From positions 170 to 64,169 of the forward strand of contig CALVJY010000010.1 of NCBI GenBank assembly GCA_944332455.1: a DNA stretch of 64,000 nucleotides, written 5' to 3'. The stretch's first letter is position 1. Each line of letters begins with the position of its first letter. This stretch comes from an uncultured Clostridia bacterium (GTDB lineage Bacteria; Bacillota; Clostridia; Christensenellales; HGM11417). The notes under the pieces were generated by a model. The model did no database searches and had not been told where the DNA came from. It saw only the letters and a list, made by a program, of their open reading frames with translations. Both the position numbers and the translations under genes were made by a program. Below are positions 823 through 57,581 of the stretch, piece after piece.

Positions 823-1356
823 GGTGAGGCACAACCTGTACGCCACTCTTGGCTGACCGAGAAAATTGATTGATAATTCCTGCGATAAATTTTAGTCGAT
901 ATGTGCCGCGGAGCGGCACTTGATATATGGCCTGACGGCCATTCGATATGCGGCCCTATCGTGCCGCTCGATATGTGCCACAACGTGGCACGTATTGGAC
1001 AGAAACACATTGAAAGCAGTACGGTTATAAAATCCATAGTTTTCGATCTGTTTTATCCAATACGAATGGCCGGGTTCGGGGCCTCTGCCTTGATCTTTAC
1101 TCCATATATGGAGGGACAAAACAGAGGGGAAAAACAAGGAACAAGGCCATTCATATCGATTGCCCGCAAAGCGGGCAAATATCGAGTTTGCCTTTGGCAA
1201 ACATATCAAGTTTCCCGTCAGGGAAACATATCGTCTGAAAGATTGGGCGAGAACGGCAACTTTTTTTACCCTTCATTTTGTCACGGGCGTACAGGATGTG
1301 CCTTCAGGCACCCCGGCGGCGCTGCCGCCCATATCGAGTTTCCCGCCAGGGAAACA
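823..1356. repeat. Family A intergenic repeat mosaic (hairpin array plus GCAGGAA...GAGTGGGCGTA...GTGCC-GGCAC module)
   Basis: About 823-985 is the reverse complement of the unit at 57222-57401. About 1041-1290 is the reverse complement of about 3676-3996. Hairpins are joined by (C)ATATCGA linkers. Confidence 0.85.
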
Positions 1357-1398
1357 GTTCGACCTAAAAAGAAGGAGGGGCCCTTCGGGGCCGAGATC

Positions 1399-1959
1399 AT
1401 GAAAATTCAGATGAATCAATGTATCAAGCTGGCCGCCGGCCTTCTGGGCCTGAGCGCGGTGGCCGAAAACCCCGCGGGGGAACTGGGCGGGGAGGACGCC
1501 GCCGACCGCGACCTGCTGCTAAAGTGCGTCAACCTGGCCGCCCAGCAGACCGCCCTGAAGACCTCGCCGCCCCGGGCCGAGGAGACCGTGACGATCGAGG
1601 GGCAGGAGCTGGAGCTGGGGCAGCTCTCCAAGCGGGCCCTCGAGGTGATCGGCGTGCGGGACCATCAGGGGAGGCCGGTCGCTTTCACGCGGCTGCCCTA
1701 CGGGGTGCGCCTCAAGGGGCCGGGGACCTTCCGGGTGCGCTATGCCTTCCTGCCCGACGACGCCGCCCTGAACGGCAGTCTGGCCTTCGACGAGGGCCGG
1801 GTGCACGCCGAACTTCTGGGTATGGGCGCGGCGGCCGAGTACTGCCTGATCTCCGGACGGTTCTCGGAGGCCGCGGCCTGGGAGGAGGAGTTTCTAAGCC
1901 GCCTCTCGGCCGCGGGCCGCAGGGCGCGTCTGCCCCGGCGGGCCTTCGCCGTCAGCTGA
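1399..1959 (+). CDS. Putative head-tail adaptor / head completion protein (podovirus gp4 / tail tubular protein A-like)
   Basis: 186 aa. Helical N-terminus, beta-rich middle ('FRVRYAFLP'), helical C-terminus ('LLGMGAAAEYCL...AAAWEEEF'). Lies between the capsid and nozzle-like genes. The upstream part of the 901..1959 ORF is repeat-derived. Confidence 0.5.
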   Translation: MKIQMNQCIKLAAGLLGLSAVAENPAGELGGEDAADRDLLLKCVNLAAQQTALKTSPPRAEETVTIEGQELELGQLSKRALEVIGVRDHQGRPVAFTRLPYGVRLKGPGTFRVRYAFLPDDAALNGSLAFDEGRVHAELLGMGAAAEYCLISGRFSEAAAWEEEFLSRLSAAGRRARLPRRAFAVS

Positions 1960-2016
1960 GGCCTTTTGCCGGAGGTCGCTCTCAGCAGGGGGGGGAGTCT
2001 TTGCCCTTACACACCC

Positions 2017-2199
2017 AAAAACATGGGCCGTCGGGCGATGATTCATTGAAAAGGGCAAAAGTTCCGGAAGAGCCGGACCGCCGCTCCCTGAAAGAGGCCC
2101 CGAAAAACATGGGCCGTCGGGCGATGATTCATTGAAAGGGGAAAAGTTCCGGAAGAGCCGGTGTTTTCCCTTGAAAAGGCCAAAAAACGCGGGCCGTCG
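2017..2199. repeat. Degenerate direct repeat, ~60-bp unit x2 plus partial third (starts 2017, 2103, 2182)
   Basis: AAAAACATGGGCCGTCGGGCGATGATTCATTGAAA.GG..AAAAGTTCCGGAAGAGCCGG occurs twice. Confidence 0.85.
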
Positions 2200-2245
2200 C
2201 CCCGGCCCTTGAGCCCATCAAAAACGATCACAGGAGGGGAACCAC

Positions 2246-3655
2246 ATGAAAATTCCCTCGGTCCGCCGCACCGTGCAGATCTTCTCGGATTTTTCGGGAG
2301 GGGTGTCGGGGCAGCGGGAGGAAAACCTGCTGCCCCAGCGCTATGCCCGGGCGGGGTTCAACTTTGCCTCCGGGGACGGCGCCCTGCGGGGGGATCCCGG
2401 CGTCAGCGCGCTGTCCGCCGGGATCGGCATCGCCGACAAGAGCTTTGCGATCGCCGGGGAGAGCGTGGAGGGGGTCTACTACTTCCGGCGCTACGACCAC
2501 GAGGAGGACTGCCCCGACGACAAGCTCCTCTTTTACACCGCCTCCCACAAGATCTACGCCTCCGACCTCTGTCAGGCGGGGGCGCCCTATCTGGTGGACA
2601 TGACCTTTTCCTCCCGGCCCTTCGGGGTGGGCTACCGCCTGAACGGGGAGGACGTGATCATCCTGGCCACCGAGACCGACGCCATGACGGTGTGGGACGG
2701 GGTAAACGACCCCTACCAGCTGACCGACGCCCCCAGGGTGTCCTCGCTGTGCGTACACTACGAGCGGCTGTTCGCCACCGCCGCCGGCGAAAACACCGCG
2801 GTCTGGTTTTCGGACGATCTGAACGTCACCAACTGGAACGTCTCATTAGACGAGGCCGGCTTTATCGAGAACGTGGACGAGGGCGGGGGCTTTCTGAAGG
2901 CGGTCAGCTTTCTGGATTCGGTCTACCTGTTCCGCTCCTACGGCATCTCCCGGCTGACCGCCTACGCCGACCAGACGGCCTTCCGGCTCTCCCGCCTCTT
3001 CGTCTCGGCCGGGCGCATCCTCCCCGACACCGTCTGCGTGTGCGGGGACCGGATCAACTTTCTGACCGAGCAGGGGCTGTACAGCTTCGACGGCTACGAC
3101 ACCGTCCGGCTCTGCCCCCAGTGGGACAGGCTGATCCTGCCCAGGGAGGGGAGCCCTTCGGCGGCCTTCGCGGAGGGAAACTATCTGCTGTGCTGCCGGG
3201 CGGACTTCGGGGAGAGCGGCGCCGGCAACAACGCCCTGCTGATCGCGGGCCGGGAGCAGACCGTCTGCAAGATGCCGGTCGATTTTGTGGCCGCCCTCTC
3301 GGCCGAGAGCCGGAACATGGCGCTGCTCTGCGCCGAGGGCAAGGCGGCCATGCTGGACAAAAGCGGCAAGTGGTTCGGCCAGTCCCTGGAAAAGCGGTGG
3401 GAGACCCCCTTTTCCGACCTCAACCGGGCGGACGCCCAGAAGGTCGCCCAGCTTCTGACCCTGAACGCCGACGGCCCCTGCACGGTCACCGTGCGGAGCG
3501 AGCGGGGGAGCCGGACCCTCTCCTTTGCGGGGACTGGGGCCGAGCAGAAGCGGTTCTCCCTCCGGGGCACCCGCTTTTCGCTGGAAATTTCCTCCGAAGC
3601 GCCCAACCTCTGCCTGTCCAAGCCCGAACTTACAATATGTACCCTTCGGGATTAG
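2246..3655 (+). CDS. Putative tail nozzle / DNA-stabilization protein (P22 gp10 / T7 gp12-like beta-propeller)
   Basis: RBS AGGAGGG. N-terminal 'FSDFSGGV' resembles the D-F-x-G-G start of podovirus nozzle proteins. Repeated beta-blade motifs (ERLF...VWFSD..NVTNW, FLDSVYLFR..GISRL). Confidence 0.58.
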   Translation: MKIPSVRRTVQIFSDFSGGVSGQREENLLPQRYARAGFNFASGDGALRGDPGVSALSAGIGIADKSFAIAGESVEGVYYFRRYDHEEDCPDDKLLFYTASHKIYASDLCQAGAPYLVDMTFSSRPFGVGYRLNGEDVIILATETDAMTVWDGVNDPYQLTDAPRVSSLCVHYERLFATAAGENTAVWFSDDLNVTNWNVSLDEAGFIENVDEGGGFLKAVSFLDSVYLFRSYGISRLTAYADQTAFRLSRLFVSAGRILPDTVCVCGDRINFLTEQGLYSFDGYDTVRLCPQWDRLILPREGSPSAAFAEGNYLLCCRADFGESGAGNNALLIAGREQTVCKMPVDFVAALSAESRNMALLCAEGKAAMLDKSGKWFGQSLEKRWETPFSDLNRADAQKVAQLLTLNADGPCTVTVRSERGSRTLSFAGTGAEQKRFSLRGTRFSLEISSEAPNLCLSKPELTICTLRD

Positions 3656-3659
3656 TTCC

Positions 3660-4421
3660 GGCCAGACGGCAATAACGCCCGTGACAAATGAAGGGTAAAA
3701 AGGTTGCCGTTTTCGCTCCGTCTTTATGTCGATATGTTTGCCTGACGGCTTTCGCTCCGTCTTTATGTCGATATGTTTGCCTGACGGCTTTCGCTCCGTC
3801 TTTATGTCGATATGTTTGCCTTTGGCAAACTCGATATGTTCCCTTCGGGAACACGATATTTGCCCGCAAGGCGGGCAATCGATATGAATGGCCTAGTTTA
3901 TTGTCTTTTCCCTCTGTTTTGTCCCACCATATTGGAGCAAAGATAAAGCAGAGAGGCCCAAACCCGGCCATTCGTATTGGATAAAACAGATCGAAAGATG
4001 TACGATTTTTAAAAACCTATCGCAGGAACAAGCGATCTGGTTTTCCGTTTGTCCCGAGTGGGCGTACGGAAAGGTGCCTGTGGCACCCCCGGCGTTGGCG
4101 CGACGAGATTGAAAGCCCGGTACATATCCGGTACATATATGGTGTTCGTCCACAACGTGCCGCGAAGCGGCACATATCGAGCAAGGCGAGCAAAGCTGAG
4201 CCTGTATATCGGCTAAAATACATTGCAGGAACATCAAGCAATGTCCACACTTGCTCAGAGTGGGCGCGTTGCCAGGTGCCGCCGGCACCGGAGCCTTGCA
4301 TATCGAATGGCCGTCAGGCCATATATCGAGCGGCCGTAGGCCGCATATCGACAAACATAATTTGCAGGAACAAGCAATCAATATTCTCGCTTATTGAGAG
4401 TGGGCGTGCTTTCAGGCACTT
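3660..4421. repeat. Family A repeat mosaic, including a 39-bp tandem x~3 (3711-3821) and three GCAGGAAC...GAGTGGGCG modules
   Basis: TTTCGCTCCGTCTTTATGTCGATATGTTTGCCTGACGGC starts at 3711, 3750 and 3789. Modules lie near 4022, 4223 and 4363. Confidence 0.85.
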
Positions 4422-4438
4422 GTCAAGAGGAGAACATC

Positions 4439-5623
4439 ATGCCGGATTACGGAAAAATGGCCTGGCTGCGGACCGAGGAACTGCTGGCCCGGGTGGAGGC
4501 GCTGGAGAACAGAAGGGGGCTGGCCCTGGGGCTGACCCTGAACGAGGAGGTGCTGCGCTCGGTGACCGAGCACAACCTGATCACCCTGCCCGTGCAGGGC
4601 GAGGCCGGGGGCAGCGTGGAGTTCCGGGCCGCCCTGACCGTTCTGGGCGGGGAGGCCGGGGCGGGCAAGACGGCCGCCCTCCGCCTGGCCTGGGACGGCA
4701 CGGAGATCGCCCGCTTCGAGCGGACGCTGGCGACCGGGAGCGAGGTCTGGTCGGTGAGCGCGGCCTTCGGGGCCCTGTCCGGGCGGCACACCCTGACCGC
4801 CGACCTGCTGGCGGAGGCGGGAAGCTGCTACCTGGAGCGGGCCGAGCTGACCCTGACGGGGACGGGGGTGCGCGAGGAAAAGGCCGAGGCCCACTATGCC
4901 GCCTTCGGCAGCCGCTACGGGGAGATCTTCCTGCTGGAGCGCAAGGGGGGACTGGACCTCGTCAACCAGTCCGAGAGCGGGCAGACCATCACCACGCCCG
5001 CCCGCACCCTGCCAAGGCCGGATGACTTCGCGGCCTGCGAGATCTTTTCGGGGCAGACCTCGCACACTCTGTTTTTCCGGCTGACCGGGCGGGAGCTGTA
5101 CGGGGGGCTGCTGAACCTGCTCACGGGGGCGGAGACCCTGCAAAAAGTGGCCGGCGGGGTGACCTCGGTCTCCTGCGTGACCACGGATCAGGGGGCGCTG
5201 GCCGCCGCCGTTGTCAACGGGGGCGTGTTCGTGTTCCCGGTCACGATGGCCGGGGAGACCCTCTCCTTCGGGAGTTTTTCCGAGGTCCGCCTCTCCGGCA
5301 TGGCCGAAAAGGTCTGCCTGGTGCCCGGCGGCCCCCATCTTCTGATCCGCACGGGCGGGGTGTTCTACCTGCGGACGGGGAGCGCCTCCGGCTTTTCCCC
5401 GGCGCTGCGGGTGGGCAAGGGGGAGACCTGTAACGGCTGGACGGACGAGGACGGCCTGCATCTGGAGCTGGGCGGCGAGGGCTGCGTGACCGCGCTGGAC
5501 CTGACCGGCGGGGCGCTGACCCAGCCGGCCTTCGTCCGCCTGGCAGACGAGGTCAAGCGGCACGGAAATTATATCCTGAGCCGCACTTCGGATCGCTACA
5601 TGATGGAGAGGCTGGAAACTTAG
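4439..5623 (+). CDS. Hypothetical protein of the phage-like module (possible tail appendage; short N-terminal coiled coil then beta-rich)
   Basis: RBS AGAGGAG 6 nt before ATG 4439. 394 aa with host-like codon usage. No family recognised. Confidence 0.7.
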   Translation: MPDYGKMAWLRTEELLARVEALENRRGLALGLTLNEEVLRSVTEHNLITLPVQGEAGGSVEFRAALTVLGGEAGAGKTAALRLAWDGTEIARFERTLATGSEVWSVSAAFGALSGRHTLTADLLAEAGSCYLERAELTLTGTGVREEKAEAHYAAFGSRYGEIFLLERKGGLDLVNQSESGQTITTPARTLPRPDDFAACEIFSGQTSHTLFFRLTGRELYGGLLNLLTGAETLQKVAGGVTSVSCVTTDQGALAAAVVNGGVFVFPVTMAGETLSFGSFSEVRLSGMAEKVCLVPGGPHLLIRTGGVFYLRTGSASGFSPALRVGKGETCNGWTDEDGLHLELGGEGCVTALDLTGGALTQPAFVRLADEVKRHGNYILSRTSDRYMMERLET

Positions 5624-5639
5624 ATTGGAGGTAAAAGCC

Positions 5640-6548
5640 GTGTTTGACTTTACATTCGGCGAAGAGGACAAGAAGGAACAGGAAGAGCAGCAGGCCCACA
5701 AGAGCCAGCTGCTGAAGGAGCTGGAGGAGGTGGACAAAAAGTATCAGGCCGACCCCACCGGGGTGGAGGACGAGGACACCTCGCTGGGCCTGACCTTTCT
5801 GGAGGCCGACCCCCGTCCGCGGGAGGAGCTGGAGGCCGAGGCCCGCCGTCAGGTGGAGGAGGCCGACCGGACCGAAAAGCAAAAGCTGACCCAAGAGGCC
5901 GACCGGGAGATCTCGGACCTCGATCGTCAGCGGGCGGAGACCGAGCAGGCCGGGGCGGAGGCCAGGGCCGGGCTGGAGCAGGCCTACGCCGACCGCAAGA
6001 AGGAGGCCGAACAGCAGGCCCTCTCCCGGGGGCTGGCCCGCTCCTCGATCATCATGGGGCAGATTGAGGAATTCGACCGCGGCAAGCTGGACGATCTGGG
6101 GGCGCTGGAGCAGTCCCTGCTCTCGGAACTGTCCGGCCTGTCCGAGCGCCGGGCCGACCTGGAGCGGGAGCGGGACAACGCCATTTCCGAACTCGACCTG
6201 ACTGCGGCCGCCCGCATCTCCGAGGCCCTGTCCGCGCTGGAGCAGGAGGAGCGGGAACGCCTGGAGGAGATCGTCAAGTACAACAACACCCTGACCGAGA
6301 AGCAGACCAAGTACGACGCCGACCGCCGGGACGCGGCCTGGAGCAAGCGCAATCAGGCCCTGTCCAACCTCAGTCAGGCCGAACTGCAGAAGATGATCGG
6401 GGAGGAAAAGGTGGAAAAAGTCAAAGCCTACTACGCCGGCCTCTCCCCGCAGGCGGCCCTGGAGGACCTGCTCGCGGATGCCGAACTGCAAAAAATGCTG
6501 GGGAGCTACTACGCCTACCTGGTCAGCTACTACCGCAACCGCATCTGA
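5640..6548 (+). CDS. Acidic coiled-coil protein (possible internal virion / ejection protein)
   Basis: RBS GGAGGT then GTG at 5640. Long E/Q/A/R/L-rich helical sequence. Last gene of the module. Confidence 0.7.
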   Translation: MFDFTFGEEDKKEQEEQQAHKSQLLKELEEVDKKYQADPTGVEDEDTSLGLTFLEADPRPREELEAEARRQVEEADRTEKQKLTQEADREISDLDRQRAETEQAGAEARAGLEQAYADRKKEAEQQALSRGLARSSIIMGQIEEFDRGKLDDLGALEQSLLSELSGLSERRADLERERDNAISELDLTAAARISEALSALEQEERERLEEIVKYNNTLTEKQTKYDADRRDAAWSKRNQALSNLSQAELQKMIGEEKVEKVKAYYAGLSPQAALEDLLADAELQKMLGSYYAYLVSYYRNRI

Positions 6549-6686
6549 TATCGCAAGCGTCTGATATTGCAATTGCATTTGATATCGCAATTGCATTTGA
6601 TATCGCAATTGCATTTGATATCGCAATTGCGTTTGATGCTGCGATCGCGTTTGATATCGAAATCGTATTTGATATCGCGCCGCATT
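6546..6686. repeat. 18-bp tandem array x8, consensus TGATATCGCAATTGCATT
   Basis: Units start at 6546, 6562, 6580, 6598, 6616, 6634, 6652 and 6670. The core units carry the palindromes GATATC and GCAATTGC. Confidence 0.95.
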
Positions 6687-6702
6687 GGTTGCTTTAATCG
6701 CA

Positions 6703-7835: not shown

Positions 7836-7846
7836 TCTTTATCAGG

Positions 7847-10024: not shown

Positions 10025-10027
10025 TCC

Positions 10028-10332
10028 GGCAGGAACTTATTGCAGGAACTTTTGATCATTTGACCGCACGGCCCGGAGTGGGCGTACAGAGGTGCCTCAG
10101 GCACCGGGCAAACCGGCCGGAAGGCAGGGCTTTGCCGCTCTGTTTAAGACGAAGGTATCCGGCACCATACCTGCATAACGGTAAAAAACTCATTGCGGGA
10201 ACTTTTGATCATTTGACCGTACGGCCCGGAGTGGGCGTGCAAAAGTGCCTTGGGCACTTGCCCGGAGTGGGCGTACAGGATGTGCCTCAGGCACTGGCCC
10301 GGAGTGGGCGTATAGAAGTGCCTCAGGCACCA
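10028..10332. repeat. Family A module copies, including ~36-bp unit CCCGGAGTGGGCGTA...GTGCC-GGCAC x3
   Basis: GGAACTTTTGATCATTTGACCG.ACGGCCCGGAGTGGGCGT occurs twice (~10045, ~10198). Short units at ~10225, 10261 and 10298. Confidence 0.85.
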
Positions 10333-10345
10333 AGGAGTGAATGTT

Positions 10346-10740: not shown

Positions 10741-12114
10741 ATGATCCTGCTTGGCCTGCTGTTTGCCGCACTGCTGGTGCTGTGCCAGTCTCCCCGCTCC
10801 TTTTTCGGGGAGGACGGCCATCGTGAGGCCCCCGCGCCCGCCGAGCAGACCGATCTTCCGGAGGGGGAGGGCTTTGAGGAGGACTGCCCTTCGGGTACGG
10901 TCCAGGCCTTCGGCGCGGGCAGCCCGGTCTGTCCGGTCTTTTTGCCGGCGGACGGCCCCGGATCCGAAGGCGGGAAAGAGGGGATCGGCGGCGCTCCGGC
11001 CTGCCCGAACGCGACCCGGGCCGAAGCCTGTTCCGGCGAGCTGTTGAACGGGAGGAGCGGGGAAGTATTTCCCGCGGTCTCGGTCCCGGCCGGAAGTTCG
11101 GCCGTGGTGCTGGAGCGGGACAGCCTGCGGGTGCTGTACGAGCGGGAGGCCTACGTCCGCCGGCCCATGGCCAGCACCACCAAGATCGTCACCGCCCTGG
11201 TCGCCCTGCAGGTCTGTCCCGACCTCGACCGAAAGCGGGAGATCCCCGCCTCCGCCGTGGGGGTGGAAGGCTCCAGCATCTACCTCCGCAAGGGGGAGCA
11301 CTTAAGCATGCGGGAACTGCTGTACGGGCTGATGCTGCGCTCGGGCAACGACGCGGCGGTGGCCGTGGCCGAACTCTGCGCGGGCAGCGTGGAGGAGTTC
11401 GTGCTGATGATGAACCGGGCGGCGGCCGACCTCGGCTGCACGGACACCCACTTCTGCAATCCGCACGGCCTGCACCATCCCGATCACTACACCACGGCCT
11501 ACGATCTGGCCGTGCTGACCGCCGCCGCCATGAAAGACCCCGTCTTCCGGGAGATCGTCGGCACCCGGAAGATCACCATCTCCAACGAGGGCTTCGACTA
11601 CGACCGGCTGCTGGTCAACAAGAACAAGATGCTTGCCAGCCTGCCCGGGGCCACCGGCGTCAAGACCGGTTACACCAAGGCGGCCGGGCGGTGCCTGGTG
11701 TCCTCCTGCGAGCGGGAGGGCATGGAGTGCATCTCGGTGGTCCTGAACTGCGGGCCCATGTGGGAGGTCTCCGCGGCGCTTTTGGAGGAGGCCCTGCAAA
11801 ACTTCCGGATGACCGACCTTCTGGCTCCCTACGAGGGGGTGGGGGAGCTGACAAAGGGGGAGGAGCGCCTGCCCCTTTACTGCCGGGAGAAATTCGCCTT
11901 TCCTTTGCGCGAGGGGGAAAAAGAGGAGCTCTCCTTCCGGCTGGAAACCGGGGAGGGCCCCTTCGATCCCGGCGAATCGGTGGGAAAAATTAAAATTTAC
12001 CTCGGGAATGACTTGATTTTTTCGGCAAAATTGTATACCATGGAAGAGATCGAACAGCGGGACTTCCTCTCGGCCCTGTTCCGGATCCTCCGGAGGTGGC
12101 GGCCCGGGCGGTAG
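10741..12114 (+). CDS. dacB: D-alanyl-D-alanine carboxypeptidase (DacB-like, peptidase S11)
   Basis: SxxK (ASTTK), SxN (SGNDAA) and KTG (VKTGYT) motifs, with a signal/TM segment. Start codon uncertain. Confidence 0.85.
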   Translation: MILLGLLFAALLVLCQSPRSFFGEDGHREAPAPAEQTDLPEGEGFEEDCPSGTVQAFGAGSPVCPVFLPADGPGSEGGKEGIGGAPACPNATRAEACSGELLNGRSGEVFPAVSVPAGSSAVVLERDSLRVLYEREAYVRRPMASTTKIVTALVALQVCPDLDRKREIPASAVGVEGSSIYLRKGEHLSMRELLYGLMLRSGNDAAVAVAELCAGSVEEFVLMMNRAAADLGCTDTHFCNPHGLHHPDHYTTAYDLAVLTAAAMKDPVFREIVGTRKITISNEGFDYDRLLVNKNKMLASLPGATGVKTGYTKAAGRCLVSSCEREGMECISVVLNCGPMWEVSAALLEEALQNFRMTDLLAPYEGVGELTKGEERLPLYCREKFAFPLREGEKEELSFRLETGEGPFDPGESVGKIKIYLGNDLIFSAKLYTMEEIEQRDFLSALFRILRRWRPGR

Positions 12115-12135
12115 CTCCCGGAAGGACGGCTTTCC

Positions 12136-12852
12136 ATGCGCATCAACAAATTTCTGGCCGAGTGCGGCCTGGGCTCCCGCAGGTCCTGCGAGTCGCTGAT
12201 CACCGAGGGCAAGGTCCGCCTGAACGGCAAAACCGCAGGTTTGGGCGAGGACGTGGATCCCGAGCGGGACGTCGTGACGGTCTCCGGCCGCCGGGTCACC
12301 CCGCCCCGCAAGTACACCTACCTGATGTTCCACAAGCCCAAGGGCTGCGTGACCACGGCCTCGGACGACCTGGGCCGCAAGACGGTCATGGACTACATCG
12401 ACCTGACCCACGTTAGGGTGTATCCCGTGGGCCGGCTGGACTACGACACCGAGGGGCTGCTGCTTCTGACCAACGACGGGGACCTGGCCCAGACCCTCAC
12501 CCACCCCAGCCATCACATCGGCAAGACCTATGCCGTCCGCGTGGCCGGCCGGGTGGAGCCCGCCCAGCTGGAGGCTCTGCGGGAGGGGGTCCGGCTGGAC
12601 GACGGGGACCTCACCGCCCCCGCCGAAGTCACGGTCCTTGAAGAGGGGACGGACAGCACCCGGCTGGAGATCACCATCTACGAGGGCAAAAATCGCCAGA
12701 TCAGGCGGATGCTGGAGGCCGTGGGCAAAAAGGTCACCTTCTTAAAGCGCACCGGCCTGGGCGATCTCCGGCTGGGCGGCCTGCCCCGGGGCAAGTACCG
12801 CTACCTGAACCCCAAAGAGATCGAGGCCCTGAAAAAGCTCGGGGAGGAGTGA
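12136..12852 (+). CDS. rluB: rRNA pseudouridine synthase, RsuA/RluB family
   Basis: S4 domain 'MRINKFLAECGLGSRR', catalytic 'GRLDYDTEGLLLLTNDG'. Confidence 0.88.
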   Translation: MRINKFLAECGLGSRRSCESLITEGKVRLNGKTAGLGEDVDPERDVVTVSGRRVTPPRKYTYLMFHKPKGCVTTASDDLGRKTVMDYIDLTHVRVYPVGRLDYDTEGLLLLTNDGDLAQTLTHPSHHIGKTYAVRVAGRVEPAQLEALREGVRLDDGDLTAPAEVTVLEEGTDSTRLEITIYEGKNRQIRRMLEAVGKKVTFLKRTGLGDLRLGGLPRGKYRYLNPKEIEALKKLGEE

Positions 12853-12880
12853 AGAGGGGGGAGAAGCTAAAATTAGTTTG

Positions 12881-12920
12881 AGAGCCGAGCAAGGACGTTT
12901 TCCTCTTGCTCGGCTCTTTT
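12881..12920. terminator. Intrinsic terminator after rluB (possibly bidirectional)
   Basis: AGAGCCGAGCAAG...CTTGCTCGGCTCT followed by TTT. Confidence 0.8.
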
Positions 12921-12982
12921 ATTGCATGTAAGTGTACTGTGAGTTCTGTATGTAACGATTTAGTTTTTATTCCGGACTTTTG

Positions 12983-14026
12983 TTACTTTTGTGAAAAGTA
13001 TAATAATGATTGATTTATACTATCTTTTAAAACTTGAATATTAAATTCCTTATAGAGGATTTTCATGCGCTTTAAAAAATCTTTATCAGAAGTAATCAAA
13101 TAGCAACTGTCTCTTTTAGTTGAGCTAACATGGTTTTTTATGTAGTCTAAATACATTCTCATGATAAACAAATCTATGTAATTATTTGCTAAAAATACAT
13201 CATCATTAATAAAAATATCACGCAATTCAAATTCAATAATTTTTTCTTCAAATTTATCAATATTTCCTAAATCGAGGTTTTTCTTTATTACATTTATAGC
13301 GCTATTTTGAATTTGTTCATCAGATAAATTACTCAATGCAGGAATCTGTTTCTTCATTTCAGAAATGCGTAATTTTAAAAGGTTCTCCTCTATGTTGGTG
13401 GGGCACGATGAATTAAAATCTATATTTGAAAGAATAAATAAAGAATCTTTCGAATCTAGATTTATATAACTGAGCCATACATTGTATCGAATAATATCTC
13501 TTATGTTTTTATATGTTTTTTTAATATTCTTTTCTTGTAGAGAGTTTGAATTTTTTAATTTAAAAAGTTCGTTTTCAATAGTGACTGAAAGCCTACTGCG
13601 TACTATACTTATAAGCTCTCTTAAAGTTATATCGTCAAATTGAAATGCTTTTAATCTAGAATAAATGTGTTGAAGATAATACCAAATAACCATAAGCCGA
13701 TTGACAATATTGCGTTTTAGTTCAGCAATAATAGGCTTACTTAACTCTTCGAAAAAATCGTTAAAAGAGAGATTATAACCTGTAAAATCCTTATCTGACA
13801 ATTTAAACGAATCACTTATATGAATCTTAAAACCATCAAAATTTTTTTTTAAATATTTTACTGTATCCTTGTATCCATCTAATCCTTTTTGATTAATAAT
13901 TTCAAATACTGAATAGGCAGAAAAAATAATTTTGCTGGTTTTTAAATCTGTTTGAAACGCCCTATTTAAAATAGGATTTTTTTCAACAATATAATTAATA
14001 ATACATGTATCTAAATATAACAGCAT
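12983..14026 (-). CDS. AT-rich orphan, PIN-domain-like protein (347 aa)
   Basis: RBS AAGGGG. N-terminal 'LLYLDTCII...IIFSAYSVFEII' and C-terminal 'NYIDLFI...YLITSDKDF' match PIN acidic motifs around a long helical insert. Strongly AT-rich versus its flanks. Confidence 0.6.
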   Translation of the reverse strand: MLLYLDTCIINYIVEKNPILNRAFQTDLKTSKIIFSAYSVFEIINQKGLDGYKDTVKYLKKNFDGFKIHISDSFKLSDKDFTGYNLSFNDFFEELSKPIIAELKRNIVNRLMVIWYYLQHIYSRLKAFQFDDITLRELISIVRSRLSVTIENELFKLKNSNSLQEKNIKKTYKNIRDIIRYNVWLSYINLDSKDSLFILSNIDFNSSCPTNIEENLLKLRISEMKKQIPALSNLSDEQIQNSAINVIKKNLDLGNIDKFEEKIIEFELRDIFINDDVFLANNYIDLFIMRMYLDYIKNHVSSTKRDSCYLITSDKDFLKRMKILYKEFNIQVLKDSINQSLLYFSQK

Positions 14027-19255: not shown

Positions 19256-19596
19256 GGTGCCTGAGGCACACCCTGTACGCCCAGGTGCCGGCGGCACCGG
19301 GCAATACGCCCACTCTTGGCTAAGCGGGAATATGGAATTTGTTCCTGCAATCAGTTTTAGCCGATATGCGGGTGCCTGAAGGCACACCCTGTACGCCCAG
19401 GTGCCGGCGGCACCGGGCAATACGCCCACTCTTGGCTAAGCGGGAATATGGATTTTGTTCCTGCAATCAGTTTTAGCCGATATGCGGGAGCCTGAGGCAC
19501 ACCCTGAACGCCCAGGTGCCGGCGGCACCGGGCCATACGCCCACTCTTGGCTAAGCGGGAATATGGATTTTGTTCCTGCAATCAGTTTTAGCCGAT
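19256..19596. repeat. ~116-bp tandem repeat x3 (family A module, reverse orientation)
   Basis: Units start ~19256, 19371 and 19487. Each contains ACGCCCACTC...GTTCCTGCAA, the reverse complement of the GCAGGAAC...GAGTGGGCGT module. Confidence 0.95.
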
Positions 19597-19679
19597 CGGG
19601 AGGGGAAGACCCCTTCCCGCGCCCCGAGCGGGCGGACAAACGGAAACAGTGCCCGTTGGATCCGGGCAAGGAGGAAACC

Positions 19680-20636
19680 ATGACAGAGAAACAGAGATTT
19701 ATCAAGGCCCTGAAAAGGGAGCCGCTGACCGGCCACGTGCCCACCTTCGAACTGGTGTTTTTCCTCACCATGGAGGAATTGGGCAAAGTGCATCCCACCC
19801 ACCGGGCCTACTTCCAGTGGGACCAGATGAGCGCCCACGAGAAAAAGCTGCAGATCGCCGACATGGCCGACTGCTACGTCGAGGTGGCCAAGCGGTATCA
19901 CCACAGCGCCATCTTCATCCATCCCAACCCCGGCGACAAGGAGAACACCCTCCGCCTGCTGGAGCGCATCCGCGAGATCTCGGGGGACGAGTACTACATC
20001 ATGATGCACGGGGATCCCACCCTGCCCATCCCCACCGGGGACGACATGGTGGAGTTCTCGGCCCGGCTGTACGAGGATCCCGAGGGGGTCATCGCCGAAC
20101 AGCAGCAGAACATGAAGTGGGCCTTCGAAATGGCCGAGTACCTCAAAAAGAACGGGGGACTGCTGGACGGCTTCGCTCTCTGCTCGGACTACTGCTTCAA
20201 CGTCAACCCCTTCTACACCCCGACCATGTTCTCCGAACTCATCGCGCCCACCCTGGCCGAGGTCATCAAGGGTTACCACGACATGGGCTACTACGTCATC
20301 AAGCACACCGACGGCAACATCATGCCCATCGTGGACCAGATGGTGCAGTGCGGCCCCGACGCCCTCCACTCCCTGGATCCCCAGGGCGGCGTGGACCTGA
20401 AGTTCATGAAGGAGCACTACGGCGACAAGGTCTGCCTGGTCGGCAACGTCAACTGCGGCCTGCTGCAGACCGGTACCGACGAGGAAGTGGAGGCCGACGT
20501 CCGCCGGGCCCTGCGCGACGGCATGCCCGGGGGCGGCTACATCTTCTCGACCTCCAACTGCGTGTACACCGGCATGGACCTGGAGCGCTACCGCCTGATG
20601 AACCGCATCTGGTGGGAAGAGGGCATCTACAAATAA
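19680..20636 (+). CDS. Uroporphyrinogen decarboxylase (URO-D)/MtaA-like family protein
   Basis: 'HTDGNIMPI', 'LHSLDPQGGVD', 'CLVGNV..GLL..GT.EEV', 'GGGYIFSTSN'. RBS AAGGAGG. Confidence 0.85.
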   Translation: MTEKQRFIKALKREPLTGHVPTFELVFFLTMEELGKVHPTHRAYFQWDQMSAHEKKLQIADMADCYVEVAKRYHHSAIFIHPNPGDKENTLRLLERIREISGDEYYIMMHGDPTLPIPTGDDMVEFSARLYEDPEGVIAEQQQNMKWAFEMAEYLKKNGGLLDGFALCSDYCFNVNPFYTPTMFSELIAPTLAEVIKGYHDMGYYVIKHTDGNIMPIVDQMVQCGPDALHSLDPQGGVDLKFMKEHYGDKVCLVGNVNCGLLQTGTDEEVEADVRRALRDGMPGGGYIFSTSNCVYTGMDLERYRLMNRIWWEEGIYK

Positions 20637-20763: not shown

Positions 20764-20876
20764 GCGGTATTTGCCTTATGGCAGGTATATTTGCCTTCGG
20801 CAAGTTTTATTTGCTTGACAGCAAGTTTTATTTTGCTTCCGCAAAGTGTTATTTCTCCCTTCGGGAGAAGTTTTGG
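20764..20876. repeat. Mini-hairpin array: 5 variable hairpins joined by 7-nt linkers (GCGGTAT/GGTATAT/GTTTTAT/GTGTTAT), period ~20-21 bp
   Basis: TGCC-TTAT-GGCA, TTGCC-TTC-GGCAA, TTGCT-TGAC-AGCAA, TTTGC-TTCC-GCAAA, TTCTCCC-TTC-GGGAGAA. Confidence 0.85.
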
Positions 20877-20949: not shown

Positions 20950-21080
20950 ATTAGCTAAGGCCTCGTGCGCTGTGCGAGGGCCTTTTTTGCCGACGCTCCG
21001 ATCTCAGCCGCAGCGGCATGCGGGCGGGGCCGGAACAGTTGAAAATTTTCGCTCCCGAAGGGGACGAGGTAAAAAGTTTT

Positions 21081-24000: not shown

Positions 24001-24200
24001 AGGAGGCCGGTTTCGAGGTCACCGACCGCATCCGGGTCTGTTACCGCGCCGGGGAAGATCTCTCCCGGGTGCTGCGGGCATGGGGCCCCTCCATCGCCGA
24101 GGACGTGCTCTGCGACCGGCTGGAGGAGGGGGACGAGGGCTTTGCCAGGACCTGGGAGATCGGGGGCGAAAGCCTGACCCTGGCCCTCTCCAAAGTGTAG
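21081..24200 (+). CDS. ileS: Isoleucyl-tRNA synthetase, type 2
   Basis: 'FYDGPPTANGKPHIGH', 'GWDTHGLPVE', 'WTTTPWTLPSN', 'DWGLSRERYWG', 'KMSKH', type-2 C-terminus 'EGLAREIVSKIQTMRKEAGFEVTDRI'. Confidence 0.97.
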   Translation: MGYKKVDAGMDFGRRELETLKFWKEHRIFEKTREQSEGKPAFTFYDGPPTANGKPHIGHILTRVMKDIIPRYKTMKGFSVLRKAGWDTHGLPVELEVEKLLQLDGKQDIEKYGIEPFIQKCKESVWKYKGEWERMSDRVGYWVDMEHPYVTYDDTYIESVWWSLKQLADRGLIYKGHKVVPYCPRCGTALSSHEVAQGYKDVKEKSVFAKFRKKGEEKTFFLAWTTTPWTLPSNVALCMNADEDYAEIACNGERYILARALVPSLFEEGSYEVLSVRKGREYEGAEYLPLFDWARPDKKACYVVNDSYVTLTDGTGIVHIAPAFGEDDARVGQKYGLPFVQLVNERGCFKPEAAPLSGMFAKEADKVIIGLLKESGALFKEQLYEHSYPYCWRCDTPLIYYARSTWFIKVTAVKEELLKANASVNWIPPAIGTGRMGNFLENVIDWGLSRERYWGTPLPIWVCDKCGKMHVMGSKAELKEKCGLSEDVELHRPYIDKPTFACECGGTFRRTPEVIDCWYDSGSMPFAQHHYPFENEELFKRNFPADFISEAVDQTRGWFYTLLAISTLLFGKAPFKNCIVLGHVNDKNGQKMSKHKGNVVDPWTVLDKQGADAVRWYFYTNSNPWLPSRFYPEAVDEVQRKFMGTLWNTYAFFVLYADIDKFDPSAVRLEDCKLSLMDRWALSRLNTLIDGVEKDLDRYDITSAARAIQAFTDDLSNWYVRRGRDRYWGSEMTEDKKAAYATLYHVLVTLSEVIAPFVPFMAESIYQNLVRGFFPDAPESVHLCTWPQADLSRVDRALEERMAQVLNAVVLGRSCRNAANLKNRQPLSRMFLVSDRADLPAELLALAADELNVKKIEYVREVTDYVSYELKPQLKTLGPKYGPLIGKIRAFLAECDALAVVSAVRGGGLFRVELDGREVEFAEGDLLISSKNKEGFVAASDRGMTVVLDTNLTPELVDEGLAREIVSKIQTMRKEAGFEVTDRIRVCYRAGEDLSRVLRAWGPSIAEDVLCDRLEEGDEGFARTWEIGGESLTLALSKV

Positions 24201-25077: not shown

Positions 25078-26032
25078 AATTCCGCTGAACGGAATTTTAT
25101 TCGGGTTTGAGGGGACAACCACGGTTCGCTTTGTATTTAACAAAGCTCTGCCGTGTTTTTCCCCTCTCAAAAGGCCCTGCCTTTTGATTCACCCCTTTCC
25201 TCCCGTGATTTTGCTCACCGCAAAACCACGATCGTGCAAAAGCCCGGCGCAGGTCCGGCCTTTTGCGAAACCAGATTTTTATGTCGATATGTTTGCCTTC
25301 GGCAAACTCGATATATGGCCTGACGGCCATTCGATATGCAAAGTTCCGCTGCGCTCACTTTGCTCGATATGTGCCGCTTTGCGGCACGTTGTGGACAGGC
25401 CATATAACAAAGAAATTTATAGACTCGTAACACATTGCTTTTTTACAAAGTCTATGAATTGCACCGGGCTTTCCATCTCGTTGCGACGATGGCGGGGCGG
25501 TAGCACCGCCGGGCAATACGCCCGTTCTTAAATAGACTTTATTTAAGAACTGTTCTCGCACCGGCTTTCTTGCCGCCATCGGACTCAATCGTGGTTTTGC
25601 GGTGAGCAAAACCACGGCGGAAAAGAGTGAATCAAAAGCGCGCAGCGGTTTTGAGAGAGAAAAACCGATGCAGAGCTTTCCCAAGGGGAAAGCGAACAGC
25701 GGTTTGTCTTTCAAGTCCGGCCGATTTTCGCTTTCGGCGAAAATCGCGTTTGGCCGGAATAAATCTCGTTGTGACGATGGCGGACATGCGCCGCCATCGG
25801 ACTCGATCCGGTCTTTTGCGGTGAGCAAAAGCCGGGGAGGAAAAGGGTGAAGCGCAGGCTTGCCGAAGCGAGGGAAAAACCGCGCAAAGCTGCACCAAAA
25901 GATTGCAGACAGCAGCAAAGTTTATTAAAAACAAAGATCATTTCAGAACTTAAAAATCGGACAGCGGGACGCGGTTTGTCCCTCAAGTCCGGCCAAAATT
26001 CGCTGTAAGCGAATTTTGCGTTTGGCCGGAGA
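25074..26032. repeat. Composite repeat region: family B copies in opposite orientations (25074-25262 and ~25560-26032) flanking a family A hairpin array (25283-25395)
   Basis: TTTTGATTCACC...TTGCTCACCGCAAA.CCACGAT matches 56779-56830. 25975-26032 is the reverse complement of 56601-56660. Confidence 0.85.
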
Positions 26033-26038
26033 ATTTTT

Positions 26039-34306: not shown

Positions 34307-34447
34307 TTTCGGGCTGGGCCCGAAAAGTGATATTTTGGCCTTCGGCCAAAGTGATATTTTGACTTATCGTCAAAGTGATATTTTCAGCCTTGCGGCTGAA
34401 AGTGATATTTTGGCTCCTGGCCAAAGTTGTGGATAAGTCCACAACTT
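34307..34447. repeat. Array of constant 13-mer AAAGTGATATTTT x4 separated by variable palindromic 11-14-nt inserts
   Basis: Repeats at 34324, 34348, 34372 and 34399. Inserts GGCC-TTC-GGCC, GAC-TTATC-GTC, CAGCC-TTGC-GGCTG, GGCTCCTGGCC. Terminal hairpin AAGTTGTGGA-TAAG-TCCACAACTT. Confidence 0.92.
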
Positions 34448-40549: not shown

Positions 40550-40691
40550 CCGGCGGAAGGCCGTTTCGGACCGTATGAGCTGGGGCTGCCTGACCCGGCG
40601 GAAGGCCGTTTCGGACCGTATGAGCTGGGGCTGCCTGACCCGGCGGAAGGCCGTTTCGGACCGTATGAGCTGGGGCTGCCTGACCCGGCGG
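40550..40691. repeat. 45-bp perfect tandem repeat x3
   Basis: CGGCGGAAGGCCGTTTCGGACCGTATGAGCTGGGGCTGCCTGACC at 40551, 40596 and 40641. Confidence 0.95.
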
Positions 40692-53737: not shown

Positions 53738-53755
53738 AAAAAAGGAGGCCCTTTC

Positions 53756-55317: not shown

Positions 55318-55318
55318 C

Positions 55319-56011
55319 ATGGCGAAAAAAATGAGCCTGAAACAGGTGGCCAAGGCCGGCCTGCTCTCCGAAAACCCGGTCTTCCGGCTGGTGCTGGGGA
55401 CCTGTCCCACCCTGGCGGTGACCACCTCGGCCCTCAACGGCGTCAGCATGGGGCTGGCCACCACCTTCGTGCTGTTCTTCTCCAACCTCATCATCTCGGC
55501 CTTAAAGCACGTCATCCCCGACAAGGTGCGCATTCCCTGCTACATCGTCATCATCGCCACCTTCGTCACCATCGTGGAGATGGTCATGCAGAAGTTCCTG
55601 CCCGATCTTTACGACTCCCTGGGGGTGTTCATCTCCCTGATCGTGGTCAACTGCATCATCTTTGCCCGGGCCGAATCCTTCGCCTCGGCCAATCCCGTGC
55701 TGCTGTCCATGGCCGACGGCCTGTTCATGGGCCTGGGCTTTACCGGCAGCCTGGTGCTGCTGGGCGGCATCCGGGAGATCCTCTCCAACGGGACCTTTTT
55801 CGGCCTAGGCGCCGACCTTTCGGCCTGGTTCCCCAAAATGGAGGTCTTCGGCCTGACCGTGGGGGGCTTTCTGACCTTCGGCCTGGTCATGGCCCTCATC
55901 AACCATCTGGCCGACCGGCGGACCAAAAAGGCCGAAGCCCGCAAAGCCGAGGCCCAGAAAGCCGAGGTGCAGAAAGCCGAGGCCGCCCGGAGCGGGGCAA
56001 AGGAGGGCTGA
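55319..56011 (+). CDS. rnfE: Rnf complex subunit E
   Basis: 'ENPVFRLVLGTCPTLAVT', 'PDKVRIP', 'LIVVNCII..RAE'. Confidence 0.95.
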   Translation: MAKKMSLKQVAKAGLLSENPVFRLVLGTCPTLAVTTSALNGVSMGLATTFVLFFSNLIISALKHVIPDKVRIPCYIVIIATFVTIVEMVMQKFLPDLYDSLGVFISLIVVNCIIFARAESFASANPVLLSMADGLFMGLGFTGSLVLLGGIREILSNGTFFGLGADLSAWFPKMEVFGLTVGGFLTFGLVMALINHLADRRTKKAEARKAEAQKAEVQKAEAARSGAKEG

Positions 56012-56012
56012 G

Positions 56013-56591
56013 ATGGAGACCTTTCTGCTGATCTTCGGGGCCATTCTGGTCAACAACTACGTGCTGGTGCAGTCCATCGGCATCTGTCCTTTCTTGGGCG
56101 TCTCCAAAAAGACGGACACCGCCCTGGGGATGGGCATGGCCGTCATCTTCGTGATGAGCCTGGCCTCCCTGTTCACCTTTTCGGTCTACACCTGGGTGCT
56201 GGTGCCCTTAAAGCTGGAATACCTGCGGACCATCGCCTTCATTCTGATCATCGCCGCCCTGGTGCAGATCGTGGAGATGGTCATCAAGCGCTTCAGCCCC
56301 ACCCTGTACAGCGCCCTGGGGGTCTATCTGCCCCTGATCACCACCAACTGCGCGGTGCTGGCCGTGGCGCTGGCCAACGTGGACGGCTCGGGCTACAACC
56401 TGTTCCAGGCCTTTTTGAACGGCATGTGTTCGGGGATCGGGTTCACGCTGGCCATCGTGCTGATGTCCGGCATCCGGGAAAAGCTGGCCCGCTGCGACAT
56501 TCCTGCCTCGTTCAAGGGCTTTCCCATCACCCTGATCACCGCCGCTCTGATGTCCATGGCTTTCGCGGTGTTTTCGGGGATGACGTTTTAG
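56013..56591 (+). CDS. rnfA: Rnf complex subunit A
   Basis: 'LVNNYVL..GICPFLGVS', 'LGVYLPLITTNCAVL', 'FKGFPITLITAALMSMAF'. Confidence 0.95.
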   Translation: METFLLIFGAILVNNYVLVQSIGICPFLGVSKKTDTALGMGMAVIFVMSLASLFTFSVYTWVLVPLKLEYLRTIAFILIIAALVQIVEMVIKRFSPTLYSALGVYLPLITTNCAVLAVALANVDGSGYNLFQAFLNGMCSGIGFTLAIVLMSGIREKLARCDIPASFKGFPITLITAALMSMAFAVFSGMTF

Positions 56592-56600
56592 CGCTTCGCT

Positions 56601-57145
56601 TCCGGCCAAACGCAAAATTCCGTTTCACGGAATTTTGGCCGGACTTGAGGGGGCGCCGTCGGCGCCGGGAAGGATCGCCCACGCTAGCTGAAAGGAAAAC
56701 CCGGTTGTTTTTCCTGCAACAGGTTTTCTTTCGGCAAAGCTCTGCAACGTTTTTCCCCTCTCAAAACCGCTTCGCGCTTTTGATTCACCCTTTTCCGTCC
56801 GTGGCTTTGCTCACCGCAAAGCCACGATCGTGCAAAACGTCGGCGCATGTCCGCCGTTTTGCGAAGACTTTTTTCCGACCAGGCGCGATTTTTGCTTCGC
56901 AAAAATCGGTCGGACTTGAGGGACAAGGCGGCAGCGCCGCCGGGCCATGCGCCCACGCTGTCAAAAAGGGACCCCCGGTTGTTTTTCCTGCAACAGGTTT
57001 TCTTTCGGCAAAGCTCTGCAACGTTTTTCCCCTCTCAAAACCGCTTCGCGCTTTTGATTCACCCCTTTCCGCCCGGTTTACTCACCGTAAATTTTCGATT
57101 GAGTCCGATGGCGGCGCATGTCCGCCATCGTCACGACAAGATCAA
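56601..57145. repeat. Family B repeat, two related copies
   Basis: CCCGGTTGTTTTTCCTGCAACAGGTTTTCTTTCGGCAAAGCTCTGCAACG...TTTTGATTCACC at ~56700 and ~56973. Homologous to 25074-26032. Confidence 0.88.
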
Positions 57146-57221
57146 AAGCCCGGTGCGGGGACAGGCTTTATAATCAGAAGCAATTTGTTACGGGCTTATC
57201 ATTTCTATTTATGTGGTCTGT

Positions 57222-57581
57222 CCATAACGTGCCGCAAAGCGGCACATATCGAGCGGCACGATAGGGCCGCATATCGAATGGCCGTCAGGCCATATATCGA
57301 GTTTGCCGAAGGCAAACATATCGACATAAATTTATCGCAGGAACAATAATCAATATTCCTGTTTAGTCAGAGTGGGCGTACAGAAAGGTGCCTGTGGCAC
57401 CCCATAACGTGCCGCAAAGCGGCACATATCGAGCGGCACGATAGGGCCGCATATCGAGTGGCCGTCAGGCCATATATCGAGTTTGCCGAAGGCAAACATA
57501 TCGACAAAAATTCATTGCAGGAACAATAATCAATATTCCTGCTTAGTCAGAGTGGGCGTACAGAAAGGTGCCTGTGGCACC
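57222..57581. repeat. 180-bp tandem duplication of the complete family A unit
   Basis: CATAACGTGCCGCAAAGCGGCAC... at 57223 and 57403. Each unit has four hairpins with ATATCGA linkers plus the GCAGGAAC...GAGTGGGCGTA...GGTGCCTGTGGCACC module. Confidence 0.95.

Follow-up and report, generated by a model that had tools for sequence, protein, structure and literature searches.

The closest catalogued relative of the repeats described here is Gut-1 (Rfam RF01706), a motif that was reported from human-gut sequences and judged to be probably a non-coding RNA (Weinberg et al. 2010, PMC2864571). The curated Gut-1 model is a 77-nt unit with three variable hairpins and the fixed heptamer GUGAAAU between them. 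Since its publication in 2010, Gut-1 has remained an orphan 'RNA motif', known from gut metagenomes only; our literature search found no later paper on its function, and a search for TCGATAT plus hairpin returned nothing relevant. At the level of DNA, the systems to compare are the repetitive extragenic palindromes and bacterial interspersed mosaic elements (REP/BIME) of Proteobacteria. We analysed a 64,000-nt stretch of DNA from an uncultured Clostridia bacterium (contig CALVJY010000010.1; C10:170-64169 of the genome), hereafter the window, which carries arrays of short hairpins separated by 7-nt linkers. We conclude that these arrays are copies of one non-coding hairpin-array superfamily of gut Clostridia, of which Gut-1 is the only catalogued member.

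The source genome (2.35 Mb, 60.5% GC, 53 contigs, 94% complete) is present in chicken-gut metagenomes. The first-pass annotation of the window had proposed that four unrelated-looking arrays share one grammar, a variable mini-hairpin plus a 7-nt linker ending in TAT: (i) arrays with TCGATAT-type linkers at five places, (ii) an 18-bp array near 6546, (iii) an array at 20764-20876 and (iv) an array at 34307-34447. It had also named enrichment over shuffled controls and covariance modelling as checks. Arrays (i), (iii) and (iv) lie where they had been placed and far exceed chance: the pattern GATAT-N14-28-GATAT-N14-28-GATAT matched 15 times in the window against 0.00 expected from 100 dinucleotide shuffles. 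TCGATAT-N-TCGATAT-N-TCGATAT matched 66 times in the genome, 0 times in the reversed control and 0-1 times in each of 60 relatives. Genome-wide there are 193 inter-linker segments, 69 of them distinct, with a mean stem of 6.3 bp; 95.9% of the 193 contain an end-anchored Watson-Crick stem that is 4 bp or longer (0.76% after shuffling). Pairing is kept while sequence changes, as the annotation had suggested, since 12 of 32 predicted pairs stay paired after two-sided changes in an alignment of 26 A1 arrays (defined below). A preset-free scan for hairpin chains returned the linkers as recurrent gap words (ATATCGA, 57; TCGATAT, 55; GTGATAT, 14; background maximum 12). Shuffles served as chance controls for hairpin chains; reversed sequence was discarded for this use because reversal preserves hairpins.

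Each unit of these arrays combines a fixed 7-nt linker with a short hairpin behind it, whose stem pairs perfectly and is free in sequence and whose loop is polar. Three to seven units form an arm, and two inverted arms around a central part form a composite. The genome holds two linker dialects. Family A has TCGATAT linkers: the A1 arm has four hairpin slots, usually with a preceding head module, and the A2 arm lies convergent to it across a centre of ~150 nt with two long-range stems. A full A element measures ~450-490 bp and its ends share inverted GTACGCCC/GGGCGTAC; many A1 arms are solo. Family copies are 72-95% identical by genome BLAST, and the window composite at 840-1330 is 94.5% identical to C15:39556-40045. 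Family B/C, which lies near the Gut-1 threshold, has a left arm (B) of 3-6 GTGATAT units, a centre hairpin GTTGTGGATAAGTCCACAAC and a right arm (C) of the GTKWTAT type, whose linkers on their own strand are GTTTTAT, GTGTTAT, GTTATAT or GTGATAT. The B arm (34324) and C arm (20764) of the window are half-elements 14 kb apart. The arrays are thus not unrelated, as they had seemed, since A1 with A2 and B with C are the two arms of a composite.

A covariance model, R1, was built solely from 26 A1 arms. It finds A2 at 42.9-51.1 bits, the B array at 34327 at 39.7 bits (E 6e-8) and the C array at 20782 at 33.6 bits (E 1.7e-6), each in the right orientation. Because R1 cross-detects A2, B and C and misses the 18-bp array, the claim of one grammar stands for arrays (i), (iii) and (iv) and fails for array (ii). 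The 'hairpin' of array (ii), GCAATTGC, is a loop-less palindrome within a plain tandem repeat; the array has no R1 match at E<=10 and matches only itself in the genome. We conclude that it is an unrelated slippage repeat.

Array (ii) is exactly what would be expected had each array arisen independently by local slippage, with likeness by chance, an outcome that the first-pass annotation had named as fatal to its proposal. Local tandem duplications also occur within the family itself (39 bp at 3711, 180 bp at 57222, 116 bp at 19256). However, every hairpin of an arm has a different sequence, and hence the arms cannot be recent tandem copies; the same arms are found again at >60 places, the covariance models detect the families mutually, and the same composite architecture is found in many genomes. 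Independent origins are refuted for arrays (i), (iii) and (iv), and we give this explanation practically no weight.

The first-pass annotation overlooked Gut-1, a catalogued Rfam motif with the same grammar. The Gut-1 model matches the B array (34325-34413) from position 1 to 77 of the model, all three stems being paired, at 40.6 bits (E 3.7e-5). The C array (20782-20857) scores 30.8 bits, also over the full model length. The best score in this genome is 49.1 bits, from a B/C copy; the gathering threshold is 50 bits, so that no copy reaches it and the window has no match at that threshold. The A arrays have no match to Gut-1 at E<=10. Scans with Rfam at curated thresholds over the window and 18 loci of other genomes returned SRP, tRNA and SAM only and no Gut-1, and the Gut-1 matches came only from E-value scans and whole-genome scans. 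By linker, GUGAUAU is 1 base from GUGAAAU, GUUUUAU and GUGUUAU are 2-3 bases away and UCGAUAU is 3. Gut-1 is one dialect of a larger kind, and the TCGATAT dialect is wholly missed by the Rfam model.

Other genomes carry the same architecture. Hairpin-bearing TCGATAT matches, among the matches listed (one genome per species), come mostly from metagenome-assembled genomes (MAGs) of gut Clostridia, and include Oscillospiraceae, Acutalibacteraceae, Christensenellaceae and ruminant-gut 'Clostridia bacterium'. We drew 30 Clostridia MAGs from these pattern matches as a sample of carriers. All 30 are multi-copy, with about 5 to 96 pattern matches each (control 0), and Gut-1 exceeds its threshold in 13 of the 20 carriers searched. 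Canonical Gut-1 copies elsewhere form the same two-armed composite, some with a special hairpin loop TCRCTnnGYTC. A compact form of ~175 nt is made up of four TCGATAT units, a box in which the 3' half of the last hairpin recurs, a central hairpin and three to four ATATCGA units; its third hairpin often has the loop TCRCTnnGYTC. More linker dialects, such as ATGGAAT and GATGATAT, occur in other genomes. We rejected TGATATAAAT, in the centre of TCGATAT-type composites, as a general extended -10 promoter; other dialects have a 'partial linker plus X box' there.

The genome has ~77 arrays in total, of which 0 are inside genes, and all arrays of the window are intergenic according to self-trained gene calls. 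Their context is tandem in 47 cases, convergent in 15, divergent in 6 and a contig end in 9. The median spacer is 787 bp long where it contains an array and 206 bp otherwise. Between co-directional flanking genes, arrays point either way about equally often (24:23 overall, 13:17 for solo A arms). The first-pass annotation had suggested a REP/BIME-like system, which is borne out in that the family is multi-copy, strictly extragenic, present in both orientations and built as unit mosaics in inverted arms.

The copies differ from one another and between strains by whole modules. Each A1 slot has its own small hairpin repertoire, and the 37 A1 arrays represent 18 slot combinations. Mutual information between slots, compared with permuted data, gave p values of 0.09 (slots 1-2), 0.14 (1-3), 0.04 (2-3) and 1.0 (the three pairs with slot 4); the slots are close to linkage equilibrium, and the hairpin cassettes assort nearly freely. 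Within slots there are compensatory doubles (GTGCCGC/GCGGCAC, GTGCCAC/GTGGCAC, GTGCCGT/ACGGCAC). To compare strains, we looked up the exact proteins of flanking genes in other, conspecific assemblies, so that the look-up protein is 100% identical in each pair; the look-up at 19656-20636 found no record in other assemblies. Strains with identical flanking proteins differ in their spacers, which show filled and empty sites, arm loss and cassette swaps (Table 1). This is BIME-type behaviour at the population level, and it characterizes the arrays as recombinogenic mosaic repeats. Many copies lie at contig ends, and assemblies break at these repeats; metagenome (Logan) contigs of DNA runs over an array locus were tried as a source of empty sites and set aside, since they fragment within the repeats and leave the joints unreadable.

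From these data we lean towards the arrays being a DNA-level, REP/BIME-like, recombinogenic and non-autonomous repeat, a reading we hold to be probable. The element would occupy intergenic spacers in either orientation, selection would maintain spacers that can each fold when single-stranded, and copies would diversify by swapping whole hairpin modules among dispersed copies, with the linkers and shared neighbouring modules as the homology for exchange. The relevant single strand would be DNA and not a dedicated RNA, and modules may be exchanged through gene conversion or through template switching. The arrays found here, being gene-less, could be relics or trans-dependent derivatives of the PF05635-linked elements described below.

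The first-pass annotation had pointed to HUH (Y1) transposases, including those associated with REPs (RAYTs), and had noted that the window holds no gene for a cognate enzyme. The absence from the window was correct, and the Y1/RAYT gene flanked by arrays that it had proposed to look for was not found in the genome (94% complete) either. A single-strand DNA transposase of this type could recognise and spread the units: the fixed single-stranded motif beside a hairpin resembles REP/RAYT and IS200/IS605 TnpA substrates, the loops on the ATATCGA strand suit stable single-stranded DNA hairpins, and Y1_Tnp sequences exist in the genome. However, these are only two matches, both IS200-type fragments that are truncated at the 3' end after 'YYVDT' and so lack the catalytic-Tyr helix. 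The DNA around them is low in GC, they have a different end hairpin of their own, CCCCGCGAnAGTCGCGGGG, and neither has arrays beside it. A third IS200-type TnpA fragment lies upstream of ileS in strain allele L208, and no TnpB was found in the genome. Genes beside the arrays of this genome include no recurrent family. We clustered the open reading frames beside 76 array loci elsewhere; the largest recurrent family is PF05635, which is not HUH, and inspection of the 15 clusters shown, by eye and with no Pfam scan, revealed no transposase-like family. An HUH transposase as the agent of spread is very improbable, and the link drawn by the annotation does not hold.

The PF05635 family member is a 116-aa four-helix-bundle gene ('23S rRNA intervening-sequence', Avd-like) that adjoins arrays in 7 of the 76 loci. 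It is present in 25 of the 30 carrier genomes and missing from 5, and among the 60 relatives it occurs in 5/5 array-positive and 6/55 array-negative genomes. We know of no function or mobility mechanism for the PF05635 gene. Of 20 PF05635 genes sampled, 12 are immediately preceded by a composite, in many dialects, and 8 instead have hairpin-free, inverted heptamer microsatellites on either side. These bracketing repeats of 7-8 nt, seen in other genomes at L214, L215, L217, L219, L223, L224, L225 and L227, include the pair of (GGAATTC)n upstream and (GAATTCC)n downstream, as well as (GTGCAAA)n/(TTTGCAC)n and (CCAGATG)n/its complement. By their sequence they would form a long stem around the PF05635 gene and would in effect be array linkers minus the hairpins. 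At L218, L220, L222, L228 and L229 an apparent sigma-70-type promoter, read by eye, stands between the composite and the PF05635 start codon (TTGAAA-17-TATAAT in L220 and L222), so the composite appears to lie upstream of the promoter and outside the mRNA and 5' UTR of that gene. In the genome under study, PF05635 has no match at E<=0.01, and tblastn and a custom HMM gave nothing better than E about 1. The gene is either in the missing 6% of the genome or dispensable for array persistence and expansion; this genome holds an expansion of 77 arrays with no PF05635 partner.

Several points weigh against a repeat that acts as DNA. A 7-nt linker so strictly kept in distant genomes demands a molecule that reads it, and none was identified in this genome. 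Most arrays are inside operons and must be transcribed, which makes a role as RNA possible, in mRNA stability, processing or protein binding. Rfam lists Gut-1 as a small RNA (sRNA) with covariation (PMC2864571). The window composite is predicted to fold to a linker-linker ladder (-164.7 kcal/mol, z -11.2), in which 7-bp helices form between left and right linkers, with the hairpins leaving at successive four-way junctions. At the sole empty/filled pair examined (3656-4399 and alleles L201-L204) there is no target-site duplication, and ~45 bp are replaced, including the last codons of the upstream gene; as there is no clean transposition signature, the spread could be purely recombinational. 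Finally, genes were called with a rough, home-made caller, and contigs from RNA runs at the arrays are sparse and carry no strand information.

The arrays might accordingly act as RNA, either as a Gut-1-like sRNA or as a cis element in operon mRNAs. The linkers could then pair between the arms as a four-way-junction rod, or be shown single-stranded to a protein such as the PF05635 bundle. Besides the Rfam listing and the ladder, a compact composite of another genome is predicted to fold likewise (-60.2 kcal/mol, z -7.1). Arm linkers elsewhere are complementary (GTGATAT/ATATCAC, GTGATGT/ACATCAC, GCTAAAT/ATTTAGC, TGAATTG/CAATTCA, GTTATGA/TCATAAC, GTGAAGT/ACTTCAC and GTGAAAT/ATTTCAC), arrays in operons are co-transcribed (the first linker of allele L183, for example, contains the stop codon of the gene before it), and the co-occurrence with PF05635 would fit a protein partner. 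However, single-linker deviations are compensated in the partner arm in 2 cases and uncompensated in 35 (2/37), and in this genome the linkers of the B arm lack complementarity to those of the C arm. Pairing between adjacent TCGA half-linkers, proposed by RNAalifold, was rejected because it is impossible in non-palindromic dialects. Half elements, truncations and fast turnover between strains are unlike a conserved RNA gene, PF05635 is missing from this genome, and in several other genomes the apparent promoter described above would separate the composite from the PF05635 gene.

The stems and loops bear on the same question. A structured RNA that is read from one strand normally has many G·U and few A·C pairs. 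The 323 stem pairs of this genome include 0 G-T and 2 A-C, and the 1433 of other genomes include 9 G-T and 6 A-C; because G-T is about as rare as A-C, each at <1% of pairs, there is no wobble excess on either strand. With the balanced orientation relative to transcription, the usual signatures of an RNA gene are missing. Read linker-forward, the loops begin with T in 77% and end with C in 52%, so that on the ATATCGA strand they are GNA triloops or GNNA tetraloops, and this is true of both arms. GNA loops closed by C-G, of the d(GCGAAGC) type, are classic, very stable mini-hairpins of single-stranded DNA. Because loop polarity tracks the orientation of each arm, each strand holds one arm of each polarity and no strand has uniform loops. 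This layout is the symmetry of an inverted DNA repeat and not of one transcript. We regard a role as RNA as a real but lesser possibility, and both the DNA-versus-RNA question and that of the heptamer reader are now directly testable.

The heptamers could also be recognition words in double-stranded DNA, with the hairpins as spacers, in arrays of operators, iterons or nucleoid sites. They recur in inverted sets with a 22-26-bp phase, in other genomes the composite directly adjoins the -35 of the PF05635 promoter (as read by eye), the 8 of 20 PF05635 genes noted above have plain inverted heptamers free of hairpins, and arrays are depleted between divergent genes (6 compared with about 12 expected). 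However, a duplex gives no selection for compensatory changes in a spacer, yet 96% of the segments pair perfectly and 12/32 pairs covary, and the loops are polar. Protein-binding arrays of this kind are improbable.

A further and more tentative idea, which we consider quite doubtful, is that the composites are the gene-less form of an undescribed mobile cassette of gut Clostridia whose autonomous form carries the PF05635 gene. The heptamers would be the functional core, which fits their standing alone around 8/20 PF05635 genes and with hairpins upstream of 12/20, and the hairpins would be exchangeable cassettes. Pairing between the two arms could give a ladder of four-way junctions, and hairpin shuffling might proceed through copy-choice guided by the linkers or through a recombination activity dedicated to it. 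If so, the element would be a combinatorial 'shufflon' of single-stranded hairpins, and the genome studied here would represent a massive expansion after gene loss.

Table 1. Array elements, strain differences at array sites and transposase fragments; positions refer to the window unless a contig is given
Feature	Position	Strand	Description
Head module before A1	823..895	+	GGTG..CAC hairpin, TACGCC(C)ACTCT, TTCCTGCGAT, then TTTTAG; six full-length copies aligned
A1 arm	896..991	+	Linkers TCGATAT, TTGATAT, TCGATAT, TCGATAT, hairpin after each; slot 3 GCGGC-CCTATCGT-GCCGC; R1 110.5 bits
Expanded A-composite centre	992..1138	.	Long-range stems GTATTGGACAGAAAC/CTGTTTTATCCAATAC and GAATGGCC...GGCCATTC, both present in the minimum-energy fold; centre kept in six copies
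A2 arm, convergent with A1	1139..1234	-	Hairpins GTTTCCCtgacGGGAAAC, GTTTGCCaaaGGCAAAC, TTGCCCGCtttGCGGGCAA; R1 42.9 bits
Right terminal module and one extra solo unit	1235..1357	-	..GAGAACGGCAAC..ACGGGCGTAC, GTGCCttcaGGCAC hairpin; solo unit ATATCGA GTTTCCCgccaGGGAAAC, duplicated in strain allele L202
A2 arm	3711..3902	+	First unit broken and triplicated (39-bp period, 100% identical), then three intact units; R1 51.1 bits
Two truncated A1 arms, each joined to a head	4157..4351	-	R1 46.8 and 56.3 bits; within a ~745-bp mosaic, 3656-4399
18-bp tandem repeat	6541..6678	.	GCATTTGATATCGCAATT, 7.8 copies, 4 identical; non-member
Three tandem heads	19256..19596	+	116-bp period; each ends in degenerate first linker CCGATAT; no hairpin arm after
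Solo C arm (right arm, no B partner)	20764..20876	+	Linkers GGTATAT, GTTTTAT, GTTTTAT, GTGTTAT; Gut-1 30.8 bits, R1 33.6 bits
A1 arm	25281..25400	+	Slot 3 a 26-nt hairpin with loop TCCGCTGCGCTC; tail GTTGTGGACAGGCC; R1 124 bits
B arm	34324..34445	+	4 x GTGATAT, TTTnnn...nnnAAA hairpins, centre GTTGTGGATAAGTCCACAAC (34426-34445); Gut-1 40.6 bits, R1 39.7 bits
Two tandem 180-bp units (head + A1 arm each)	57216..57582	-	97% identical; rnfA-rnfB spacer; R1 114.2 and 110.2 bits
Head modules in window	823-895, 4022-4090, 4223-4300, 4363-4420, 57335-57400, 57515-57582
Site, strain alleles	819-1398		In one strain a 90-bp repeat of another family replaces the composite; others have rearranged composites
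Site, strain alleles	3656-4399		745-bp mosaic missing in four assemblies (L201-L204), where the spacer is 23-43 bp
Site, strain alleles	20764		C arm absent in strain allele L208
Site, strain alleles	25283		Allele L193: slots 1 and 3 filled by different variants of the family; no change in slots 2 and 4 or the downstream flank; upstream module replaced
Site, window allele	34307		Four-unit B arm; right arm deleted, small remnants kept
Site, strain alleles	34307		Full B+C composite in two alleles (L183, L190); six-unit B arm and different centre in two others
Site, strain alleles	rnfA-rnfB spacer		Strain L175: different mosaic, 178 bp shorter
IS200-type TnpA fragments	C2:19746-20060, C6:9327-9638		Common 5' part; diverge after 'YYVDT'; one runs into YD/RHS-like repeats

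The window contains a second repeat family with its own logic of a fixed word plus a hairpin, in which GAGTGGGCGTAC stands beside a GGTGCCnnnnGGCACC (or GGCGGCnnnGCCGCC) hairpin. It stands alone in tandem (36-bp period at 10223-10330, within 10025-10336; 116-bp period at 19256) or heads A1 arms. Spacers of ~1 kb (25078-25280, 25400-26038 and 56592-57215) are full of further dispersed modules, such as ..CCTCAAGTCCGGCC..hairpin..GGCCGG.. and ..TTGCGGTGAGCAAA.., over which the depth of metagenome contigs is 20-100 x that of the flanking genes; one such module stands in place of the A composite in strain allele L201. In the B centre (34426-34445, minus strand) we considered TGTGGATAA as a DnaA box, with the perfect word TTATCCACA. 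Because this word is lost in other copies, which have GTTGCGGACAAG, GTTGTGGTCAAA and others, it looks coincidental, and the candidate was rejected.

The first part of the window (1-6548) holds co-oriented genes with no Pfam matches (81, 186, 469 and about 400 aa) and, after these, a DUF7934 gene; the spacers of this part are the most array-rich and most strain-variable of the window. The spacer between the 186-aa and 469-aa genes (1960-2245) carries another repeat of ~70-90 bp, in 2-5 copies depending on the strain. Upstream of ileS (isoleucyl-tRNA synthetase, 21018-24200), the segment 20890-20995 has a promoter-like TTTACA-17-TATAAT, then a GC hairpin and a T run; it is conserved between strains and the DNA upstream of it is not. 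No T-box was found upstream of ileS with Rfam at the curated threshold. Elsewhere in the window are a perfect 45-bp tandem repeat at 40550-40691 (3.2 copies, 100% identical) and a low-GC island at 12001-14000 (43%, compared with about 61%) among GC-rich genes.

Compared with mobile elements, the arrays do not correspond to miniature inverted-repeat transposable elements (MITEs), which are recognised by terminal inverted repeats and a target-site duplication, as no duplication is present at the single site examined. They also differ from IS200/IS605 elements, which have intact TnpA and/or TnpB and subterminal hairpins at both ends. In the PF05635-linked cassettes of other genomes the gene adjoins the array, whereas the arrays here have no PF05635 gene. 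The BOX elements of Streptococcus pneumoniae (boxA-boxB(n)-boxC) are likewise modular intergenic repeats of Firmicutes with variable internal units and stable predicted folds. Compared by description only, however, the module sequences of BOX are conserved, and it has no fixed short linker combined with free hairpins.

Gut-1 shares with the arrays the hairpin/heptamer grammar, the habitat in gut Clostridia and the two-armed composite. It differs in that the window copies fall below 50 bits (B/C) or go undetected (A), and in that the Gut-1 model describes a 77-nt unit, whereas the actual element is a two-armed composite of 175-450 bp. The elements are also multi-copy (77 arrays here) and hypervariable between strains, and a dedicated RNA is not favoured for them.

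Like REP/BIME of Proteobacteria, the elements are extragenic, multi-copy and palindromic, occur in both orientations and form unit mosaics as inverted pairs; they also lie inside operons and between convergent genes and are polymorphic between strains. REP/BIME have a RAYT, whereas this genome has no RAYT or intact Y1 gene. A REP is a conserved palindrome with a 5' tetranucleotide of the GTAG type; here the conserved part is the 7-nt linker ending in TAT, and the stems are free to vary with compensation. Unlike in REP/BIME, slot-specific hairpin cassettes reassort in the arrays described here.

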